Shown here in pieces: positions 279 through 61,861 of a DNA stretch of 64,000 nucleotides (the first letter of the stretch is position 1; each line of letters starts with the position of its first letter). A program made the position numbers and the translations under genes. The stretch lies in the IMG/VR virus record IMGVR_UViG_3300033062_002687, one strand, 5' to 3'. This DNA is from a virus. Lineage: Duplodnaviria; Heunggongvirae; Uroviricota; Caudoviricetes. The notes below the pieces were generated by a model. The model had not been told where the DNA came from and did not search any database. It saw nothing but the letters and a program-made list of their open reading frames with translations.

Positions 279-370
279 TGAGCGTACCAGGAATTGAACC
301 CGGACTTCAGAGTCTCTGCTTTTTTTTCAAAACCGTAGCTCTGTGCGCTTATCCATTACGCGATACGCCC
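279..370 (-). tRNA. tRNA-Arg(ACG) with 19-nt intron at 37/38 (314-332)
   Basis: CAGAG-CT-ACG-G[intron]A-CTCTG; BHB-like central helix CTAC/GCAG with an A34:C mismatch. Confidence 0.85.
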
Positions 371-373
371 AAA

Positions 374-446
374 TGTCCCCAGCGAGATTCGCACTCACGT
401 CTACTGCTCGAAAGGCAGTTATGCTTGTCTTCTACACCATAGGGAC
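374..446 (-). tRNA. tRNA-Glu(TTC)
   Basis: ACTGC-CT-TTC-GA-GCAGT; acceptor GTCCCTA/TGGGGAC. Confidence 0.9.
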
Positions 447-448
447 GA

Positions 449-527
449 TGGGATTGAAGGGATTTGAACCCTCGGCCAACCGATTAAGAGTCGGTTGCTC
501 TTAATTACCATGCTGAGCTACAATCCC
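449..527 (-). tRNA. tRNA-Lys(CTT)
   Basis: ACCGA-CT-CTT-AA-TCGGT; acceptor GGGATTG/CAATCCC. Confidence 0.92.
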
Positions 528-530
528 ATT

Positions 531-635
531 GTGTCATAGCGGTGACAGATTTCTCTGCCACCTTAGACGACAACTCTACTTACCAACGGTGCATGTCCAT
601 TCCCGTTGTTTCCTCATTGTTACGCCGTGTGACAC
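531..635 (-). ncRNA. Candidate ~105-nt structured ncRNA
   Basis: Terminal stem GTGTCA/TGACAC enclosing a CAACGG/CCGTTG hairpin and a GGTGGCAGA-GAAA-TCTGTCACC GNRA hairpin. Confidence 0.5.
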
Positions 636-646
636 TATGACTATGA

Positions 647-761
647 TGGCTCGAGGGAGGATCGAACTCCCGTTCTCACGGATTCTTAGTTGAAATCCGC
701 AGGCATATAATTCACGGATACCAAGTATCAGCCGTGCGCCTTGCCACTTGGCCATCGAGCC
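647..761 (-). tRNA. tRNA-Ile, intron-containing, with GAT and TAT anticodon cassettes
   Basis: Acceptor GGCTCGA/TCGAGCC; CACGG/CCGTG stem; 43-nt insert 683-725; two BHB-like solutions. Confidence 0.85.
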
Positions 762-764
762 AAA

Positions 765-836
765 CGCCGATGCTGGAAATTGCATCCAGAGTTGAAGAGT
801 GACAATCTTCTATGTTTCTGCTTACACCACACCGGC
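765..836 (-). tRNA. tRNA-Asp(GTC)
   Basis: GAAGA-TT-GTC-AC-TCTTC; G73. Confidence 0.88.
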
Positions 837-838
837 AA

Positions 839-911
839 TCTGGGCTGTGAGATTTGAACTCACATAGCATGGTCTACAGCCACGAGCTCTTCCAAGTTAA
901 GCTAAGCCCAG
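839..911 (-). tRNA. tRNA-Tyr(GTA), archaeal type
   Basis: CGTGG-CT-GTA-GA-CCATG; C1:G72, A73 and short variable loop (archaeal/eukaryal identity set). Confidence 0.9.
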
Positions 912-943
912 GTATCTAACTACTAATTAACTACTAATTACTG

Positions 944-1450
944 TCAAATTAGTAGTTGATTCGTCTTTTCATGAATAATATAATGAACGTTTGATTTACA
1001 TGTATGATATTTCTTCGATATATAATTATATGACATCCCTGATAAACTATCAAGCCTCATATTTTTTATTTCTTCATCACTAAATTTTCTTAATTTGTTT
1101 GCAGCAATTTTTGCTGATCTCATACGAATATATGGAGACTTATCCATCATATTGTCAGATGCTGTACCTATTTTAATATTTTTAAAATCATTATCTAATG
1201 AATTACCGTTCACATGTCTGACACATATGCCTTTTTTAAATAAATATTCACCATACAATTGATAAGCCGCTAATCTATGAACATAGATCTGGGCAAATTC
1301 TCCATGAAATTGTACCGTGAATCTCCAATATTTGTATTTAGTATTCTGATAATTTAATTTTCTGAATTTTTTACCAAATTTTACTCTTCCATCTGACAAA
1401 ACTCTATATCCTTTTTCAAATGCCTTTTTGATTGCTTCCTTTTGATTCAT
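944..1450 (-). CDS. HNH homing endonuclease with C-terminal HTH
   Basis: YVHRLAA...VRHVNGNSLDNDFKNI...SDN motif; start moved to MNQKE because the listed ATG at 1483 lies inside the tRNA-Met intron. Confidence 0.85.
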   Translation of the reverse strand: MNQKEAIKKAFEKGYRVLSDGRVKFGKKFRKLNYQNTKYKYWRFTVQFHGEFAQIYVHRLAAYQLYGEYLFKKGICVRHVNGNSLDNDFKNIKIGTASDNMMDKSPYIRMRSAKIAANKLRKFSDEEIKNMRLDSLSGMSYNYISKKYHTCKSNVHYIIHEKTNQLLI

Positions 1451-1462
1451 GTTAAAATAAAG

Positions 1463-1568
1463 TAGCGGTACCAGGACTTTCATTCAGCAGCTTTATGCTA
1501 ACTGATTTTGAACCTGGGACCTATGGCTCATGAGGCCATCGGGAACGACCATACTCCCCCATACCGCT
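1463..1568 (-). tRNA. tRNA-Met(CAT), probably initiator, with 30-nt intron in the T-loop (59/60; 1477-1506)
   Basis: A1:U72 acceptor AGCGGTA/TACCGCT; ATGGC-CT-CAT-GA-GCCAT; BHB helix TTCA/TGAA restores the TTCAAAT loop. Confidence 0.85.
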
Positions 1569-2008
1569 ATAGAAACATCTGTTCCGCAATGGAACAAAGA
1601 ACCAAAGAAAAAAACGCACACAGCAGAACAGGACGTTCCTATAGTCGGATATGACAACCAACTTGCGTTGATTGTTGATCCATCGGAAACCCGACGATCT
1701 CTCCGCCTTGTGGACAACCAGCTATCTTGATTGACTGCTGATATTTCCTTTCCTGTTTTACTGCTGTTAAGCTCATTTTGTGTGAATTTATTATACCTCT
1801 ATAATCATGTGGGAGCAAAATGCTCCCGAGTTCTTATCCAGCGCCAGTGTCTAACGACCAATGCTCCAAAAATTGGTCGATCATCAACACACTATATGCC
1901 TAGCACCAATCTTGTTGCAAAATTGATGATCATCAGCATATCTTAACCAAATCCGATATTGTTGGACCCGATTGAAAGCCAACCTTAATGTTAGGAAAAT
2001 AAATGGAT

Positions 2009-2260
2009 TTATATATTTTTCTGTTTCTCAAGATACTCATTTTCAAGATTATCGAGAGCCTGTAAGACTGCCCGGATGTCTGGCTTTCCGACATTGGAGT
2101 ATGCATGAATTAACAGAACTAGTGTATCTCTTTTTAATCCAGAGCTTGCGAGCTTCTTAAATGCCCTGGAGATCATGCGAATCTCTCTAGCTAATTTCTC
2201 AGATGTGTCCTCTAATTTTTTAAGCTCGACTAATGTTACATTCTCCTTTTCTTTTTCCAT
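2009..2260 (-). CDS. Hypothetical protein
   Basis: 83-aa ORF with purine-rich RBS-like upstream sequence. Confidence 0.7.
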   Translation of the reverse strand: MEKEKENVTLVELKKLEDTSEKLAREIRMISRAFKKLASSGLKRDTLVLLIHAYSNVGKPDIRAVLQALDNLENEYLEKQKNI

Positions 2261-2281
2261 TGTTTCATCCCCATTTATTTT

Positions 2282-2659
2282 CTATTCAAAGGCAGAACCG
2301 AGATTTGAACTCGGAGTTCCTCGTCTGCAGCGAGGCGCCTTGCCGGATTTGACCATTCTGCCGTAAATGTAAAAGACAGCTCTTCCGTGCTTTTTGGCAA
2401 ATCTTACCTTGAGCATTCTCTTAAGCTTTCTGTTCCATCGATCAACCTGCCAATAATGCTTGAACCAATATGTTTCTGGCCGGAACTTTGTTTTATCTGG
2501 ATATCCACGACAACCGTCTCTCCGTTCTATCCACGAATCATAATAAGGTTCTATGAACAAATCATTCTCGATGATTAATTTCTGTGGAATTAATGGTTCT
2601 GGATAGACCCATCCACTTCCACGCCTATCTTTTTGAGTCATTCGCTTTCTGTTTCCCAA
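2282..2659 (-). CDS. Hypothetical basic protein whose C-terminus reads through tRNA-Cys
   Basis: 125-aa ORF overlapping the upstream gene end. Confidence 0.55.
   Translation of the reverse strand: MGNRKRMTQKDRRGSGWVYPEPLIPQKLIIENDLFIEPYYDSWIERRDGCRGYPDKTKFRPETYWFKHYWQVDRWNRKLKRMLKVRFAKKHGRAVFYIYGRMVKSGKAPRCRRGTPSSNLGSAFE
2290..2362 (-). tRNA. tRNA-Cys(GCA)
   Basis: CCTCG-CT-GCA-GA-CGAGG; U73; acceptor GGCAGAA/TTCTGCC. Confidence 0.92.
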
Positions 2660-2976
2660 GTACCATCACGTTTGTAATTAAAGACCTTGAATTTATCTTC
2701 ACGATCATAGCTTACATACTGTTTTATGATGAACTTTTTGTATCGCTTTTTAAAGGCAGCTAACAGATAATGAGGATGAGATACATTTGTTGAACATTGT
2801 ATCAGATACACATTACATTCATCATCAATTGCAAGCAAATCAAAAAGCGAATATGCATCTTTGGGTGATACGAACCTTCCTGTCCGCTCGACGATAGCTA
2901 CATTTAAACCTTTTTTTTCCAATAATTTTATAAGATTTGCGCGGTTTTTGTTACCCTTTCTCCTAGGATGTTTCAT
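2638..2976 (-). CDS. Hjc-like Holliday junction resolvase / PD-(D/E)XK nuclease
   Basis: KGN...LEKKG...FDLLAID...YLIQCST pattern. Confidence 0.7.
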   Translation of the reverse strand: MKHPRRKGNKNRANLIKLLEKKGLNVAIVERTGRFVSPKDAYSLFDLLAIDDECNVYLIQCSTNVSHPHYLLAAFKKRYKKFIIKQYVSYDREDKFKVFNYKRDGTWETESE

Positions 2977-2981
2977 TTATC

Positions 2982-3645
2982 TTAGCATGAAGCTTGGTTG
3001 TTTTTAAAGTTTTTGCCTTCGAGCTTGCTAATGAACTGATATATGCCGCAAAGATCAGTGTATTCTGTTGAATGTATCTCCTTTATCTTCGCCTGATTGT
3101 AGGTTGAAAGTGTGTCCAAAAATCTCTTAGAGTAAACTGAGGATATCCCAAGATAAAATTCCTCGGCGACTCCATGAAGCATCTGATCGATCTTCTTGAA
3201 CCAATGCGTAATCTCGACGTCGCGCGTACCTGCAAACCTTGCCGCAGACTGTCCTCCTTTTCGATGCTTATGCGGCACCAATGATTTTTCATGAAACACC
3301 TCCTCAATCTCACCATCTGAATAAACCTTAGCGAAAAAGCATTCGTCATAATCCATAACAAGGATTTGATACATCAATGTTTTTGTATCAGGAAACCTTA
3401 ACAGATCCTTACCACAAAAATAATGTTTTTGCTGCTTATCATATGGCTCAACTGTTAATTGTTCATCATTCCAATATAAAGATATGCCATCTGTTTTCTT
3501 GGCATTACTAAAGATAGTGAGCTATTTTGTTAAGGCCCGCAGTAGTGCTCTGCCTAGTTTGCCTGTCCTTAATGTTCTTTGCTGACATAATCTCTTGCCT
3601 TATGTTTGGTGCTTGTGCACCGACGGGGATATGAATACTTATCAT
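2982..3645 (-). CDS. aRF1/eRF1-like peptide chain release factor (N+M domains), expressed via a +1 frameshift at 3513-3508
   Basis: SD GGAGG + ATG 3645; NIKD (NIKS-like) in frame 0; YFCG (YxC) and KHRKGGQSAARF in the +1 frame; junction CTT TAG. Confidence 0.85.
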
Positions 3646-3664
3646 TTTCTTACCTCCATTTAAA

Positions 3665-3796
3665 CGCCCAAGGCCGGAGTTGAACCGACACGCCTTTTAC
3701 AGCCCCTGTTTTCCAGTCCTGGCTTCAAGTCCTGATATTCGATTCCTGGCTCGAATTAGCAGACAGGTGAATCAGGCCATAGATTCTATCTTGGGC
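3665..3796 (-). tRNA. tRNA-Ser with a 46-nt insert holding GCT, CGA, TGA and GGA anticodon cassettes
   Basis: Acceptor GCCCAAG/CTTGGGC, G73, long variable arm, CCTGT/ACAGG anticodon stem. Confidence 0.85.
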
Positions 3797-3800
3797 AAAA

Positions 3801-3891
3801 AGCCACCATCCAGAGTTGCACTGGAATTAGCTAGTCACCTGGATATATATTTCCTACAGGCTAGCTGAACTTTCTGTTGTTCTATGATGGC
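3801..3891 (-). tRNA. tRNA-Thr(TGT) with 19-nt intron (3836-3854); unusual C33
   Basis: GCTAG-CC-TGT-A[intron]A-CTAGC; clean BHB CCTG/CAGG with TAG and TGA bulges. Confidence 0.82.
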
Positions 3892-3936
3892 ATACTACTT
3901 TAAAGCTGCACTATCCTACTACTATACTACTTTCAA

Positions 3937-4085
3937 TGCGGGTGTAGGGAATCGAACCCTATCCGCCACCTTGTGGCATCAGATTTCTTCCGAATGGATT
4001 TAAGTTCCGTCTTGAGTGACGTCCTAAGTTCTAAGTTTCGTCTCATTGATCTTAGTCTGACGCTTCTCCATCCAGCTCCACCCGC
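3937..4085 (-). tRNA. tRNA-Leu with a 65-nt insert holding AAG, TAG, CAA and TAA anticodon cassettes
   Basis: Acceptor GCGGGTG/CACCCGC, A73, long variable arm GCCAC/GTGGC, TCAGA/TCTGA stem. Confidence 0.85.
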
Positions 4086-4090
4086 AAAAA

Positions 4091-4163
4091 TGGACTCAGC
4101 GGAATTTGAATCCGCAGCCTATTCCTTGCAAGGGAATTGCTCTGGCATTAGAGCTATGAGCCC
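4091..4163 (-). tRNA. tRNA-Ala(TGC)
   Basis: ATTCC-CT-TGC-AA-GGAAT; G3:U70. Confidence 0.92.
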
Positions 4164-4215
4164 GTTTGTTACTTATATTTTTCATATAACTATGCCATTT
4201 TACATAACTATTAAC

Positions 4216-4322
4216 TGGGACTGACCGGATTTGAACCGGTACCGACTGGTTCCTCCTTCCTTTCATCCTATAACTCTCTGAGACCTGGAGCCAGTAATTC
4301 TGCCTGATTAAAATACAATCCC
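4216..4322 (-). tRNA. tRNA-Trp(CCA) with 34-nt intron (4251-4284)
   Basis: ACTGG-CT-CCA-G[intron]A-CCAGT; central helix CTCC/GGAG. Confidence 0.88.
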
Positions 4323-4323
4323 G

Positions 4324-4478
4324 CGGGCATCGAAGGACTTGCACCTTCTTCCTCCTGTTCACTGTTATCTTCACCAAGCACAAGAGTGGTCCCTCGTGGA
4401 AATGACATCAATGGACTTTGGTTTCCATTGGTGAATGATGCTAACAGACAGGCGCTCATCTATATGAGCTTGATGCCC
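4324..4478 (-). tRNA. tRNA-Asn(GTT) with 82-nt intron (4360-4441)
   Basis: CCTGT-CT-GTT-A[intron]A-ACAGG; central helix CTGT/ACAG; intron stem TTCACCAA/TTGGTGAA. Confidence 0.88.
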
Positions 4479-6858: not shown

Positions 6859-7374
6859 TTAGGAGCATTTTTTTCTCATCATAAATTTATTTGCAAGATA
6901 CTCCTCATCATCTTGCGAAAAGCCCTTTCGCATCTTCATATGGTCCAAAACATGATGATGCCCAACTTCATGAGGAATAACGTATTCATCCATATATTTT
7001 TGGAGCTCATGCCTCTCGTCAAGCTCAGGTATCATCTTTTTGTATCTCATACCTTTCTTTGTTTTGATCACTGGTTCTGAATAAACATTGATGCGATCAG
7101 CCTTATCAGAATATTGAGCAAATGCCTTAGTTTGCTCAGTAAAAGAAAGCTTTGAAGGAGGCCTGAATGAAACCTCCTTTAAGCCTGTTAGCTGCTCTTC
7201 CGGCAGTGTTTCTAATACCCTCTTTGCCTCTTGAGGAGAGATCGGGTAAACATGATTCTTATATGTAGACTTAACTGTGATTGGAATTTTCACCTTACCT
7301 TTCTTCACGAATGCTGCTGTCCTGATGCCTTTTCTCGCCATTCTATGTCTCCAAGATTCCCATTTCCATGTCAT
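6859..7374 (-). CDS. Tag-family protein, zincin-like metallopeptidase
   Basis: WESWRHRMARKGIRT tag; HEVGH with downstream EE. Confidence 0.75.
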   Translation of the reverse strand: MTWKWESWRHRMARKGIRTAAFVKKGKVKIPITVKSTYKNHVYPISPQEAKRVLETLPEEQLTGLKEVSFRPPSKLSFTEQTKAFAQYSDKADRINVYSEPVIKTKKGMRYKKMIPELDERHELQKYMDEYVIPHEVGHHHVLDHMKMRKGFSQDDEEYLANKFMMRKKCS

Positions 7375-14423: not shown

Positions 14424-15344
14424 TTATTTGTGCCTGGTAAATGCATAAATTAATCCGACTATTACGGATAAAACGAAGGCAATTACAATCAAATCAAGCA
14501 CATTAACAAACTCAGCTCCTGCTGTCCCTAATCCATCTGCAACTATTTTTTCCATGTCACCTTTATCATAGGTATTTGCATAACCTAGCGTTGCGCATGA
14601 ATCTACATGCTCTGTATTTCTCCATCTTAGACCAGCTGTAGCTGTCTGCGTTGTTCCGGCAGCAACCCATGACGTATCGACACAGCTTGTTCCTGAAGCT
14701 GCATATCCAACAAAATACTCGTTAGCTGTACTAGCTCCCTCAATACAATTTGACCATGTTCCGCACTTCAGAGTTGCGTTCGGAGCCTGATTCGCACCAC
14801 TAGCACAAACTTTTCCTGCAGCAACATGCAAAGATGCATCATTCGTATCTAAAATACCTCCTCCATCACAATAGCCATCAGGACCCTGCCTTGTGTATGC
14901 GTTTGTACAGGCATTATATGTGGCAGTCTCTCCGGTATTCGTCACATATTCACCGCTTATTAATCCATTTACTGTCGTATTTATTATGTAATCTGCAGCA
15001 ATAAAAACATTAGCTGTTCTTACAACCCATCCTGTTGCAACACATGTTGCTGTTCCATCACCAGCGTATCCTACATAGAATCTCGTATAAGCACACCATC
15101 CGTCAGTATAATTTGCCCAGCTATCTGAACAATATACTGCCGCTGTCGGATCAACATCATAATCTGTTGCATTAATACAGACATTTCCTGCTGTCACATT
15201 CTTTATAACACCTGTGTCGTTGTATTTGTATGCACTAGGAGCACTTGTCTCATCCATGCATCCTGTCACTGCCGCGTTAACATACATCGCGAGTATTGTC
15301 ATTAACAAAACTCCAATTCCGATCATTCCTATTTTCTTATTCAT
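14424..15344 (-). CDS. Secreted Cys-rich protein with C-terminal coat-like anchor (candidate minor coat protein)
   Basis: Signal peptide; C-terminus YDKGDMEKIVADGLGTAGAEFVNVLDLIV matches the 57860-58582 family. Confidence 0.8.
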   Translation of the reverse strand: MNKKIGMIGIGVLLMTILAMYVNAAVTGCMDETSAPSAYKYNDTGVIKNVTAGNVCINATDYDVDPTAAVYCSDSWANYTDGWCAYTRFYVGYAGDGTATCVATGWVVRTANVFIAADYIINTTVNGLISGEYVTNTGETATYNACTNAYTRQGPDGYCDGGGILDTNDASLHVAAGKVCASGANQAPNATLKCGTWSNCIEGASTANEYFVGYAASGTSCVDTSWVAAGTTQTATAGLRWRNTEHVDSCATLGYANTYDKGDMEKIVADGLGTAGAEFVNVLDLIVIAFVLSVIVGLIYAFTRHK

Positions 15345-36959: not shown

Positions 36960-37406
36960 TCATCGGAATCTTGCAAACCTCCTTTGTTGTGCCTTCATCC
37001 TTACCCTTTCAAAGATCCATACTTTTATCCTGTTTAAATGCCGCTCGACGTCAAATTTTGAAACGACCTGCCCGTTATCTTCTCTTTCGAAATATGAATA
37101 ATAATCCGGATTCGATTCAATGGCCATCTCGAGATCATATAATGAAAGACCTGATGCTATCTGTTCACCTGTAAAAACTATTTCTTCAACTCCCTTGATC
37201 ATGAATTTCAGTTCCGTAAGCTCGTCGTCTTCAAATAGCTGAAGGGAAAGAGTAAATAATTCACTCCAATAATGCGGCATGAGTGAATTCTGAGCTCATC
37301 AAAGGCTCGACCTTAAATGATTAACTCAAGGATACGAAGCAATATCATTTGAAGGAAACAAACATTGTTTGCTTCTCTCTTCCCAGGAATATCTTGTGAA
37401 TGCCAT
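36960..37406 (-). CDS. Hypothetical protein; 5' part probably intron-interrupted
   Basis: Coupled TAATG start at 37406 is in frame with ORF 36960-37280 but three TGA codons lie in a hairpin-rich insert. Confidence 0.55.
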
Positions 37407-57859: not shown

Positions 57860-58081
57860 TTATTTGAATAGGTTGCCGAGCTTTATAAAAATCCCAATTA
57901 TAAAACCAAGAACAACTAACAAAACTATAAGATCAAGCCATTCGACAACTGCGGCTCCGGTAGTGCCAAGCCCATCCACAACAACATCCTTGAAGTCATT
58001 TTTGCTATATGCATTATTAACTATGCAGACATGTGTTGTTTGGTTCATTGTTCCGCCAACGCCGCAATATCCATATGCCAT
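57860..58081 (-). CDS. Small coat/pilin-like protein, copy 3 (73 aa, with Cys loop)
   Basis: DFK..VVDG.G..GAA.VEWLDLIVLL.VLGFIIGIF.KLGNLFK; GGAGG RBS. Confidence 0.8.
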   Translation of the reverse strand: MAYGYCGVGGTMNQTTHVCIVNNAYSKNDFKDVVVDGLGTTGAAVVEWLDLIVLLVVLGFIIGIFIKLGNLFK

Positions 58082-58173
58082 TGATTTTCCTCCCTGTTTA
58101 AAATATATTGAGAGAATAAAAATTCTCTCGAAAAATAAATAAAAAAAATTTTCTTCCTTATTTCAGCACAAGC

Positions 58174-58341
58174 TTACTTAAAGAGATTGCCTAGCTTTAC
58201 GAAGATTCCGATTATAAAGCCAAGGACGATTAGCAGGACTATCAGGTCAAGCCATTCGACGATTGCCGCCCCGACCGTTCCCATTCCGTCCACAACGATC
58301 AGCTTAAAATCGCTCTTATCGTAACTTTTTGCATATGCCAT
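58174..58341 (-). CDS. Small coat/pilin-like protein, copy 2 (55 aa)
   Basis: Hand-translated MAYAKSYDKSDFKLIVVDGMGTVGAAIVEWLDLIVLLIVLGFIIGIFVKLGNLFK; AAGGAGG RBS. Confidence 0.85.
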   Translation of the reverse strand: MAYAKSYDKSDFKLIVVDGMGTVGAAIVEWLDLIVLLIVLGFIIGIFVKLGNLFK

Positions 58342-58411
58342 TTGTTTTTTCCTCCTTGATGTTTTTTAACTATGAGCCCTATAAAGAGCAAAAAAATATT
58401 TTTTATCTGTC

Positions 58412-58582
58412 TTACTTAAACAGATTGCCTAGCTTTACAAAGATTCCGATTATGAATCCAAGTACAACCAGTAAGACGATCAAATCAAGCCACTCAACAA
58501 TTGCGGCGCCGCTGACGCCCATTGCGTCAACAATTATGTTTTTGAAATCGCCTTTTGTATAGTTGTTTCCCAAATACACCAT
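58412..58582 (-). CDS. Small coat/pilin-like protein, copy 1 (56 aa)
   Basis: Hand-translated MVYLGNNYTKGDFKNIIVDAMGVSGAAIVEWLDLIVLLVVLGFIIGIFVKLGNLFK; AAGGAGG RBS. Confidence 0.85.
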   Translation of the reverse strand: MVYLGNNYTKGDFKNIIVDAMGVSGAAIVEWLDLIVLLVVLGFIIGIFVKLGNLFK

Positions 58583-59328: not shown

Positions 59329-59590
59329 TGATTATGAACCAGAGAGGACTTCACGAAATGTGATGATAGATACGAATAAAGATACATTCCTTGAAGAGAT
59401 GCGCATAATAAACAAAGGTATGTCAACAGAATGCAGGCGTGGCAGAAGTGATGTTTACAATGAAGTTATATCATATGGCATCGAAATCATTAAGCTCAAG
59501 AGAGATATCGGAGACAAAGACTTCGAAAAAACCTGGAGTCTTTTGCATAAGATCAATCTTCAGAAGGTTGATATATCTAAATTAATCTGA
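59315..59590 (+). CDS. RHH-like regulator, paralog of 58740-58979
   Basis: RSDVYNEVISYGIE. Confidence 0.65.
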   Translation: MTKNDDYEPERTSRNVMIDTNKDTFLEEMRIINKGMSTECRRGRSDVYNEVISYGIEIIKLKRDIGDKDFEKTWSLLHKINLQKVDISKLI

Positions 59591-61168
59591 TTTTTTTTCT
59601 AACTTTGGATATGGTAAAATCTTATCGGCAAGAAGATTTTTAATTCTATTCTTTTCATCTTCTCCCTTTCCAACAATTAAAAAATATTTATGTTTTCCGC
59701 TAACACTTATTTTACATTTTGAGAGATCTTCATTTTTCAATTGATCAGCCAGATGCCTTCCGGCAGGCAACTTAATACCATCAGGCTTGATCACAGAGAT
59801 AGTATTAGCACAGCCAAGATATAATGCACCAACAGCCTGATAGATTATTCCCAAATGTCCTTGTTCCGGATCTGCAAAGGATATTAATCCCCAAACATCC
59901 TTAAAATCAACCCGAATCATTTTAATTACACCCGATAAAAATTCAGAAGCTGTATTTTTTTCCAAACCTGGAACAAGAGCAAATCTTCTTAACTCCATAA
60001 CTTGCTTAATTTTATCTTCTCCAAAAATTGACCCTGCTACACCTGGATTCGAAGGCGACCCAATCGCAGCCACACCAACAAGATTTCCATTTTTAATCAA
60101 ACCATAATTTGTTGTTCCAATAGGAAGAGTCTTAAGATAATGATTTTTCAGTAAAAATTCCTCTACAAATTCGTTTTTTAATCTACGAATTCCATCATCC
60201 CAACCTCTGAATTTTTTCATCGCCAAAGCATATTTTCTATCTAAATAAATTCGAGCATCATGATATAACAAATTAATCAACTTATCAGCAATTTTTCCTT
60301 CTGAACCAACAAAATAATTATTTCCATCTTTAAAAATAGTCCCAATCGAACCAAAAATTCTTTCAGCAAAATTTTTAAACTCTATACAAACTTCATATGT
60401 ACCACATAATTGAATAAGACTTCTTCTATAAGATTGACAAGTCATAACTGGAATAGTACCATCACCATCAATCATTCCTCTCCAAAAATGATGTTCTAAA
60501 TTTTCTGAAACTTTTGGCGGAATTAGATTCTTTGATTTTTCAGGAAGAATTCCTTTTGCAGTTAATGATTCCCACATAATTTTGCTTTTAAAACATATTT
60601 GACATTCCTTTGATATCTTTCCTTCTTCTCTTTTTCGTTCCCTATCTAAAATTTTTCCTGTAAGCTTTATTGCTCTCGCAAATTTTTCAAGATGTGCACG
60701 ATCATCATATTTTAATGTAATCTGAATTTGATAATTTTTCTTTCCCAGATTCCCATCTGCAGCGAAAAATCCGAGCCAATATGCTTTTTCCTCAGTATCA
60801 ATCACATCAAAATAATGCTCGTCGACATGACCAAATGCTGTCATTCCCCTTAATTCAACCCCTGCCTGTTTAAGCCATTTCTCGATCATGTGATGCTGAA
60901 TCCCTTCAAATGATTTTGAAATCTCCATTGCTGATTCGCCGGCAAGGTATCTTTGTTTCAAAACATTGATATCACAAGGCAACTCCATTAGTTTAGGGCC
61001 ACTTTTTCTTAATTTAATATTATTTTTTTTCAAAATCCCAAGGATAGCCGTTATGCTAATCCCAAACTCTTTAGCGAGCAGTTTAGATGAACTTCCTGCT
61101 ATATACATCTCAATTACTTTCTGTTCATCAACTTGTTTTCTTGGACGCCCAGTTCTCAAATAAATCAC
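59582..61168 (-). CDS. HTH-LAGLIDADG endonuclease fused to a Mom-like DNA modification (acyltransferase) domain
   Basis: YWLGFFAADG and FWRGMIDGDG; then NHYL, ELRRF, NTASEFL, ISFADPEQGHLGIIYQA. Confidence 0.8.
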   Translation of the reverse strand: MIYLRTGRPRKQVDEQKVIEMYIAGSSSKLLAKEFGISITAILGILKKNNIKLRKSGPKLMELPCDINVLKQRYLAGESAMEISKSFEGIQHHMIEKWLKQAGVELRGMTAFGHVDEHYFDVIDTEEKAYWLGFFAADGNLGKKNYQIQITLKYDDRAHLEKFARAIKLTGKILDRERKREEGKISKECQICFKSKIMWESLTAKGILPEKSKNLIPPKVSENLEHHFWRGMIDGDGTIPVMTCQSYRRSLIQLCGTYEVCIEFKNFAERIFGSIGTIFKDGNNYFVGSEGKIADKLINLLYHDARIYLDRKYALAMKKFRGWDDGIRRLKNEFVEEFLLKNHYLKTLPIGTTNYGLIKNGNLVGVAAIGSPSNPGVAGSIFGEDKIKQVMELRRFALVPGLEKNTASEFLSGVIKMIRVDFKDVWGLISFADPEQGHLGIIYQAVGALYLGCANTISVIKPDGIKLPAGRHLADQLKNEDLSKCKISVSGKHKYFLIVGKGEDEKNRIKNLLADKILPYPKLEKKSD

Positions 61169-61409
61169 TCCGATAATTTCTTAGTTCAAGACCTTCTTCT
61201 ATTGTCTTTGGGCAGCATCTTGTGCAAAGCTTTGAGTCGTGCTTAGGACGCTTACTGTAGTTATAATGGATAACTAATGTCTCCTGCCCGCATCTGTCAC
61301 ACTTGTCAAAGTGCACAAAAATGTCATGCTGCGTCTTTGTTGAGAAAGGAAAAAAACCTTTCTCCTCATTGCTCTTCAACATAGCTCTTACATACTTCGC
61401 GCGGATCAT
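61128..61409 (-). CDS. Small Zn-finger protein
   Basis: CDRC...CTRC. Confidence 0.55.
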   Translation of the reverse strand: MIRAKYVRAMLKSNEEKGFFPFSTKTQHDIFVHFDKCDRCGQETLVIHYNYSKRPKHDSKLCTRCCPKTIEEGLELRNYRSDLFENWASKKTS

Positions 61410-61740
61410 TAATGATCAACAACACTGATGCTGACACATTTGCATTCAGAGTTATGTTACCAGGATATTTACAATAACAATTCAATTGCACTACATCCTG
61501 CTCGTATGCATCGAATCCCAATCCTGCTGTAACACACTGCGCCCTACAACACTCATTTTTGTCATAGTTCGGTTTCATAAACTTCTCCGGACTTAGCACT
61601 CCAAAATACGCTAATGCTCCTATTGCTGCTAAAACAATAAGTATGGCCCACCCATTTTGGCGACTGAAAATAACAAATCTGTTACTTTACAGTAATGTCA
61701 TGAGGAATTCCATACTTTCTTGACTTTTTTTGTTTTTCAT
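61366..61740 (-). CDS. Class III signal (type IV) pilin-like protein split by a 39-nt BHB intron (61656-61694)
   Basis: Spliced product MKNKKSQESMEFLMTYGWAILIVLAAIGALAYFGVLSPEKF; GGAGGGG RBS. Confidence 0.85.
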
Positions 61741-61807
61741 ATTTCTCCCCTCCTTACTTCTATAAAATTTACACATGAATCCTCCAATGAAGCAAAATAT
61801 CATCAGC

Positions 61808-61840
<33 letters not shown>

Positions 61841-61861
61841 CAACAATAAAATAAAAAAAAA

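Follow-up and report, generated by a model that had tools for sequence, protein, structure and literature searches.

In the literature searched, part of which was available only as partial text, a BHB intron has been demonstrated in only one archaeal coding sequence, cbf5, and one further case is located in a 5′ UTR. The cbf5 pre-mRNA intron was found in Desulfurococcales and Sulfolobales (Yokobori 2009, PMC2738675). According to the available part of that paper, the introns are 33–39 nt long in several species, are inserted in phase 1 of a conserved codon, and mostly adopt an unconventional BHB. The 5′ UTR case is Haloferax volcanii HVO_1309 (PMC7714728), and according to the accessible text of that report no other case besides cbf5 had been reported. 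For an archaeal virus, Peng et al. proposed putative 12-bp introns in protein genes, without splicing being shown, as described in the same portion of PMC2738675. Among tRNA introns, the relaxed forms (hBH, HBh′, and BHL) are recognised EndA substrates (PMC5829648, available part), and no EndAs other than those of (alpha-beta)2 and epsilon2 type are reported to cut relaxed or non-canonical sites in the accessible text of PMC5829648 and PMC12397907. The available portions of PMC4090602 and of two 2026 preprints add nothing on mRNA introns. Our literature search, which included few subscription papers, found no BHB intron in a pilin gene and no demonstrated one in a viral mRNA.

Here, we describe a 39-nt insert in a pilin-like gene on the minus strand of a 64-kb stretch of DNA (64,000 nt, hereafter the window). 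The window is probably part of a virus-like element of archaea with a Woesearchaeota/Nanobdellota cell as its host. On sequence grounds, the insert is likely to be a BHB pre-mRNA intron that is spliced by the host, like that of cbf5. As in the accessible description of cbf5, it is short, has a relaxed motif, interrupts a conserved codon of the reading frame after its first base, and was missed by gene callers. However, cbf5 is a crenarchaeal chromosomal housekeeping gene with cDNA and cleavage evidence across many species in the sources available, whereas the pilin-like gene, an accessory surface gene, belongs to a virus-like element that is probably of Nanobdellota, and is known from one DNA sequence. 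For the cbf5 pre-mRNA intron, Watanabe 2002 is reportedly cited as well. The locus shares with HVO_1309 the processing of an mRNA by the tRNA splicing endonuclease, which is predicted in the pilin case. In the available account, removal of the HVO_1309 intron appears to matter for expression; that intron is chromosomal and located in a UTR, whereas the pilin insert interrupts the reading frame. The putative 12-bp introns, as summarised in the text at hand, are likewise small insertions in archaeal viral coding sequences. In contrast to them, the pilin insert carries a stop codon, and its removal is therefore needed for a full-length product. Relaxed tRNA introns such as ARMAN-2 tRNA-Cys 59/60 also have one clean and one disturbed bulge in the parts available (PMC5829648, PMC12397907), but the pilin RNA is an mRNA in which an exon–exon helix replaces the tRNA stem. 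The initiator-tRNA intron of the same element is at 59/60, as described for ARMAN-2 tRNA-Cys in those parts, and has a 3×1 loop as in the pilin insert.

An insert at a conserved site of a pilin-like gene

The features of the locus and of the tRNA cluster are listed in Table 1. Straight reading of the pilin-like gene ends at codon 18, and removal of the 39 nt opens a frame of 111 codons in which the motif and spacing of the family are restored. Exon 1 encodes a Lys-rich leader and a class III-like motif, K-S|Q-x-S-x-E, followed by F-L-M-T. Exon 2 encodes a hydrophobic pilin-type helix (GWAIL...YFGVLSP) and a Cys-rich α/β domain of ~70 aa. From 5′ to 3′, a single nucleotide of the insert is followed by a 31-nt hairpin and an unpaired C, then by the central helix's 3′ strand (61661–61658) and by AA, which belongs to the 3′ bulge. 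In the database, the gene is called as a 70-aa product (P0001) that starts downstream of the insert and is present on three contigs, the longest of 140,343 nt. No other form of it is in the protein collection, and the expectation in the earlier note that gene callers truncate the genes of the element is borne out for the pilin-like gene. A Shine–Dalgarno-like GGAG sits shortly upstream of the internal Met used by the 70-aa call. A short tandem run of a 4-nt A/T repeat was also seen at 61810–61843, in the gap upstream of the gene.

Table 1. Coordinates of the pilin-like gene, its parts and neighbour, and the tRNA introns in the window
Feature	Position	Strand	Remark
Pilin-like gene	61740 to 61366	minus	
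Shine–Dalgarno-like purine run (GGAGG/GGAG)	61745..61753	minus	before exon-1 ATG; from sequence
Exon 1	61695..61740	minus	15 codons + 1 base
Candidate BHB intron, 39 nt	61694–61656	minus	phase 1 in Tyr codon
In-frame TAA	61689–61687	minus	within hairpin
Exon 2	61366..61655	minus	
Outer helix, 5′ strand CTCA	61704–61701	minus	exonic
Central helix, 5′ strand TGAC	61700–61697	minus	exonic
Outer helix, 3′ strand TGGG	61651..61654	minus	exonic
Extended exon–exon clamp	61640..61716	minus	61716–61710 pairs with 61646–61640, 7 bp; rare synonymous codons in part
Downstream neighbour, HTH + LAGLIDADG-type endonuclease fused to Mom-like domain	59582..61168	minus	198 nt from pilin stop
tRNA cluster with 8 BHB-type introns	279..4478	minus	
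tRNA-Arg intron	332–314	minus	
tRNA-Ile intron	725–683	minus	
Initiator tRNA-Met intron, 30 nt	1506–1477	minus	T-loop 59/60
tRNA-Ser intron	3756–3711	minus	
tRNA-Thr intron	3854–3836	minus	
tRNA-Leu intron	4049–3985	minus	
tRNA-Trp intron	4284–4251	minus	
tRNA-Asn intron	4441–4360	minus	

The ends of the insert are fixed by homology. When all deletions starting at gene bases 30–59 and ending at or before base 109 were scanned, a single one, 61694–61656, yielded M-T-Y-G-W. It is the 39-nt cut that had been predicted to recreate the Tyr codon and the pilin motif, and no other deletion in the scan does so. A search with exon 2 gave 1129 relatives at E ≤ 0.001, and the named ones are mostly hypothetical proteins of Woesearchaeota/Nanoarchaeota. 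From 344 proteins fetched, 333 passed the family filter; the 11 dropped were three unrelated repeats and eight members keeping Y-GW. Comparison with these intron-less pilin homologues, which had been suggested as a check, indicates a constant segment: Tyr precedes GW in all 102 relatives having at least 12 upstream residues (120 examined), and in 318 of 320 relatives E and GW are spaced by 6, the two exceptions being regex artefacts. Judged from these sequences, in-frame insertion at the Y-GW segment is not tolerated in the family sample of 320. The homology-fixed ends coincide with the BHB cut sites, and the evidence is that coincidence rather than a BHB-like shape as such.

The outer helix (CTCA/TGGG) has four of four pairs, one of them U-G, and the central helix (TGAC/GCCA) has three of four, with one A·C mismatch. 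The inner helix (ACTG/CAGT, 4 bp) continues into the hairpin. The cuts, AT|T and AA|A, fall after the second base of each 3-nt bulge, which are the exon borders set by homology. All three helices and both cut sites are present as listed in the earlier note. Its description of two 3-nt bulges holds for the 3′ bulge, which is clean, but the 5′ bulge faces an unpaired C and forms a 3×1 internal loop. Because of this extra C, the motif is relaxed and departs from the strict form with two clean bulges. At the 5′ end of the insert the hairpin is set in by 1 nt, and at the 3′ end it stops 7 nt short. Such an asymmetry would be required by a BHB intron and would be unexpected for a DNA-level inverted-repeat element.

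The same three helix criteria, which were chosen after the motif was seen, are matched by 91 of 447,447 minus-strand site pairs 36–42 nt apart (2.0e-4), and the two of them that are independent of the hairpin by 269 of 63,921. Shuffled inserts pass the BHB criteria in 0.7% of cases. The intron hairpin alone is unusually stable (−10.2 kcal/mol; 0.45% of 2000 shuffles), and the whole 73-nt region is not (z −1.58; 15 of 200 shuffles equal or better). The central helix is predicted to be almost never formed (pairing probability 0.00–0.03). The BHB conformer lies 2.9 kcal/mol above the local minimum, and the corresponding values are 1.8–9.5 kcal/mol for the six tRNA introns of the element that were tested. 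When bacterial promoters and terminators were scanned for, the hairpin gave no terminator hit.

A further signal resides in the exons and is independent of the insert's own sequence. The outer helix is built on codons that are rare in the long frames of the window, CTC (6% of Leu) and GGG (10% of Gly), and a 4-bp outer helix has a probability of 0.027 given the peptide and the codon use of the window. In the fold of the insert with 30 nt of each exon, the ensemble pairing probability of the outer helix is 0.69, aided by the 7-bp exon–exon stem. Synonymous redraws of the 22 codons around the junction reached 0.69 in 1 of 1500 cases with window usage, in none of 1000 with uniform usage, and in 10 of 1000 with GC3-biased usage. 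This result speaks for selection on the exons to close around the insert, or for survival of the insert only at a place that already offered such a stem.

The closest orthologues, P0258 (23-kb contig) and P0122 (4-kb contig), form one cluster. Exon 2 is open and 60% identical to P0258, and all six Cys residues are kept. Both orthologues are called from internal starts past the Y-GW site; P0122 begins at the same Met as the 70-aa call of the window, and P0258 begins at another. The GW segment is absent from only 3 of the 333 family calls (the window gene, P0122, and P0258), in a sample biased against truncated calls of more distant members, which would not be retrieved. The N-terminus-less calls of P0258 and P0122 fit a shared interruption as indirect evidence, and the GGAG near the downstream Met could account for truncated gene calls even if no intron is shared. 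P0121, which is the next orthologue, is intact. In P0006 (4.4-kb contig), five non-family residues precede GWAIL, and this may be another interrupted copy.

A same-site insert was not found in the three collections scanned. Scans with an exact degenerate pattern allowing inserts of 10–40 nt (12–42 nt in the viral collection) gave 1 viral, 5 genome, and 8 metagenome hits, and all 14 are chance matches without pilin flanks. The 64-kb window contains no further copy of the insert (best other match, E 0.36). No related locus was found in IMG/VR with exon 2, a neighbour protein, P0121, or P0258 as the query. P0006 gave two weak hits there, and two weak hits of the pilin alignment in IMG/VR were rejected as unrelated phage genes. 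INPHARED gave no match, and two distant viral relatives gave no pilin match.

tRNA introns and other genes of the element

The eight tRNA introns provide an internal control. Seven of them are at 37/38 and one is at the non-canonical 59/60. After excision at the BHB register, ARAGORN recognises 8 of 8 as tRNAs. At least three central pairs are present in seven of the eight, and an extra 3′ base as in the pilin insert is present in three. The pairing probability of the central helix is 0.00 in four of the introns and 0.25–0.83 in the four with perfect helices. On this basis, the element would need an endonuclease that tolerates relaxed, non-canonical sites. The Leu intron has two of four central pairs only, and its borders are less sure. 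The initiator tRNA-Met gene (1457–1566, minus) was missed by ARAGORN and Rfam; its intron surfaced in a loose blind scan and was found again by a strict scan. An HNH endonuclease gene (944–1450, minus) directly follows it. Once the introns are removed, the tRNAs at 279–370 and 3936–4086 (minus) read Arg(ACG) and Leu(AAG). An anticodon with A34 is unusual in archaea, and these two would suggest inosine editing. The cluster also contains a structured RNA-like stretch of ~105 nt (535–645, minus) with an acceptor-like stem and two arms (−39.5 kcal/mol), for which ARAGORN and Rfam gave no match.

The earlier note had extended tRNA-type splicing to the mRNAs of the element in general. This generalisation is not upheld within the 64 kb, where the strict blind scan is at chance level: it gave five minus-strand hits and six on the other strand, and shuffles gave a mean of 2.9, with 6 of 31 reaching five. 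The three minus-strand hits other than the pilin insert and the initiator-tRNA intron fall inside long open frames. The loose blind scan for spliced ORF joins gave 479 candidates and was too noisy to use. A frame at 37406–36960 (minus) starts at the stop of a NUMOD3/HTH endonuclease gene, runs for 26 codons, meets a hairpin with stops (about 37330–37286), and resumes in the same frame for 106+ codons. It has no outer helix, and no homologues were found; it is a possible second interrupted gene.

The stop codons of the 39 long minus-strand frames are TAA in 19 and TAG in none. A release-factor-like gene (3645–2982, minus) is split at CTT-TAG (3513–3508), and the +1 frame continues. Its downstream part matches eRF1 domain 2 and aRF-1, and for its upstream 45 codons, which gave no Pfam hit, a likeness to the NIKS region is visible by eye only. 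The gene looks as if it carries an autoregulatory +1 frameshift in the style of prfB.

Pfam and PHROG scans (50 and 41 window proteins) identified HNH, NUMOD3, and LAGLIDADG-type nucleases, a Mom domain, an ATP-dependent ligase, a PolX-like domain, a Cas4-like nuclease, a collagen-repeat protein, and a release-factor domain. Neither scan gave a capsid, terminase, or EndA family, and two distant viral relatives gave no EndA match. At least 16 otherwise dissimilar genes at 6859–34595 (minus) share the N-terminal motif W-x-x-[ED]-S-x-R-H-x-L-A-[AR]-[KR]-G-I, which is possibly a packaging or targeting signal. The same paralogue arrays occur in two IMG/VR virus records, one of them complete with terminal repeats, and the virus-like status given to the element comes from this distant link. 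Three tandem, near-identical hydrophobic paralogues of 55–73 aa (57860–58582, minus) are possible coat proteins; a similar segment is present near the end of a 306-aa protein (14424–15344).

The predicted pilin-like product

The restored N-terminus has a basic leader followed by K-K-S|Q-E-S-M-E (Ser at −1, Q+1, S+3, and E+5), in agreement with a class III signal, and Ser is found at −1 in 23 of 102 relatives. It continues into a hydrophobic helix (hydropathy peak, 2.4) that is also a helix in the structure model, whereas the 70-aa called product is without any hydrophobic segment. The C-terminal domain was modeled (pLDDT 80) as two helices around three strands with six Cys, and no Ig-like β-sandwich was observed. 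This domain is one of a varied set of short Cys-rich forms. In contrast, the predicted fold of P0003, a full-length relative of cellular type, is a long helix with an all-β sandwich head, and its best fold match is the archaeal type IV pilin 8fk7, which is weak (E 2e-3). Fold searches with the exon-2 model gave no match at E 0.001 (best Z 5.3). Neither the gene nor its relatives matched a pilin family in Pfam or NCBIfam, a PDB sequence search gave nothing, and Atlas gave no usable feature hit for exon 2. With P0003, Atlas gave Nanobdellota clusters, and 3 of 30 hits carry Class_IIIsignal at 20%.

Pilins of the QXSXEXXXL group are processed by EppA (PMC2910488), and system 1 pilins are widespread in Nanobdellati (PMC13705601), according to the available parts of these papers. 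The window protein resembles the Epd-type (system 1, DUF361/QXSXEXXXL) pilins described there in its charged leader, Q+1, S+3, E+5, and hydrophobic helix. It differs from them, as far as those descriptions extend, in having Thr rather than Leu at +9 and a shorter, Cys-rich α/β C-terminal domain without a clear fold match. It has Glu at +2, where 100 of 102 relatives have Ala. The name type IV pilin used at first suits only the N-terminus, and the C-terminus is a small Cys-rich α/β domain instead of an Ig-like sandwich. Sequence and structure models describe the product as pilin-like and not as a typical pilin, in that a pilin N-terminus is joined to a Cys-rich domain unrelated to it. The 50 window proteins scanned gave no match to a pilus ATPase, platform, or peptidase family.

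Proposed splicing and alternative explanations

Here, we propose how the pilin-like message may be processed. The two exons would pair and present the hairpin to a broad-specificity host EndA, of the (alpha-beta)2 or epsilon2 type, which would cut after the second base of each bulge. An RNA ligase would then rejoin the exons, giving a predicted membrane-anchored pilin-like protein of 111 aa; RtcB-type ligation would restore the frame. The unspliced message would give only a 17-aa peptide. In the weakest step of the scheme, the product would probably enter the host pilin pathway as a decoy or pilus modifier. A BHB intron in a protein gene, as the earlier note had it, is supported by the BHB register at homology-fixed ends, by the relaxed geometry shared with the tRNA introns of the element, and by the synonymous clamp in the exons; its generalisation to other mRNAs is not.

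The main rival is a dead or dying gene, in which a hairpin (a transposon footprint, a MITE remnant, or an unspliced BHB intron) inactivated a dispensable pilin-like gene. Unlike cbf5, the gene is not evidently essential, and a dead insertion would cost little. The insert occurs once in all DNA examined, the gene is accessory and has an intact orthologue (P0121), and the central helix is mismatched and unstable, all of which agree with inactivation. We nevertheless consider it unlikely, because both exons are open, the Shine–Dalgarno sequence and the six Cys are retained, and a random insertion would not account for a synonymous clamp in the exons around it. Three observations speak against a MITE or DNA transposon footprint in particular: the T-Y-G frame fits no target-site duplication, the inverted repeat is set back from the ends by 1 and 7 nt, and no second copy is present in the 64-kb window.

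The remaining alternatives are much less probable. Translation without splicing, in which a 17-aa leader is followed by downstream re-initiation to give a 70-aa soluble Cys-rich domain (or a 77-aa form), has in its favour the database call P0001 and the orthologue P0122, which start at this Met, and the GGAG shortly upstream of it. It is very improbable, since it leaves unexplained the complete pilin signal and membrane helix kept across the insert, the BHB register, and the clamp; moreover, the called product has no hydrophobic segment, and P0258 is called from yet another internal start. Ribosomal recoding, by read-through or reassignment of the TAA or by a translational hop over the hairpin, would suit an insert whose length is divisible by 3 and in which the only stop precedes a hairpin. 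However, TAA is a normal stop here, and read-through would add 13 residues to a segment fixed in 318 of 320 relatives and lose the Tyr. A hop is opposed by the split codon at the junction and by the two matched pairs of take-off and landing codons, which give wrong products, and recoding in either form is thus hardly credible. The chance of an assembly artefact is equally slight: the truncated call and the neighbouring genes are found on three contigs, of assemblies that may not be independent, the insert has no source elsewhere in the window, and an artefact would not fall on the BHB register.

Beyond host splicing of a BHB intron, a more specific scenario may be drawn for a DPANN virus, which we regard as speculative and rather doubtful. 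In this scenario, the mini-intron in a pilin decoy would spread by collaborative homing with the adjoining LAGLIDADG endonuclease and would link decoy expression to the host endonuclease. In phages, group I introns that lack an ORF are known to use collaborative homing (PMC3984707, available part). The target of the LAGLIDADG enzyme would be the intron-less pilin codons, and the HNH enzyme beside the initiator tRNA may act likewise. The same host endonuclease would have to mature at least eight viral tRNAs, and the intron would thereby put the expression of a viral surface protein under a switch based on splicing.

A BHB intron that carries a stop codon, in a gene that is borne by a virus, apparently not essential, and probably of a Nanobdellota host, would be of a known but very rare kind and in an unusual setting. 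The locus offers a compact, testable substrate of under 100 nt with eight matched tRNA controls on the same DNA, and the synonymous clamp is a single-sequence signature for finding more such introns that gene callers truncate. If the intron is spliced as proposed, BHB introns are able to arise or be maintained beyond the Crenarchaeota and beyond catalytic motifs, and the tRNA splicing of the host can be needed for viral mRNAs.
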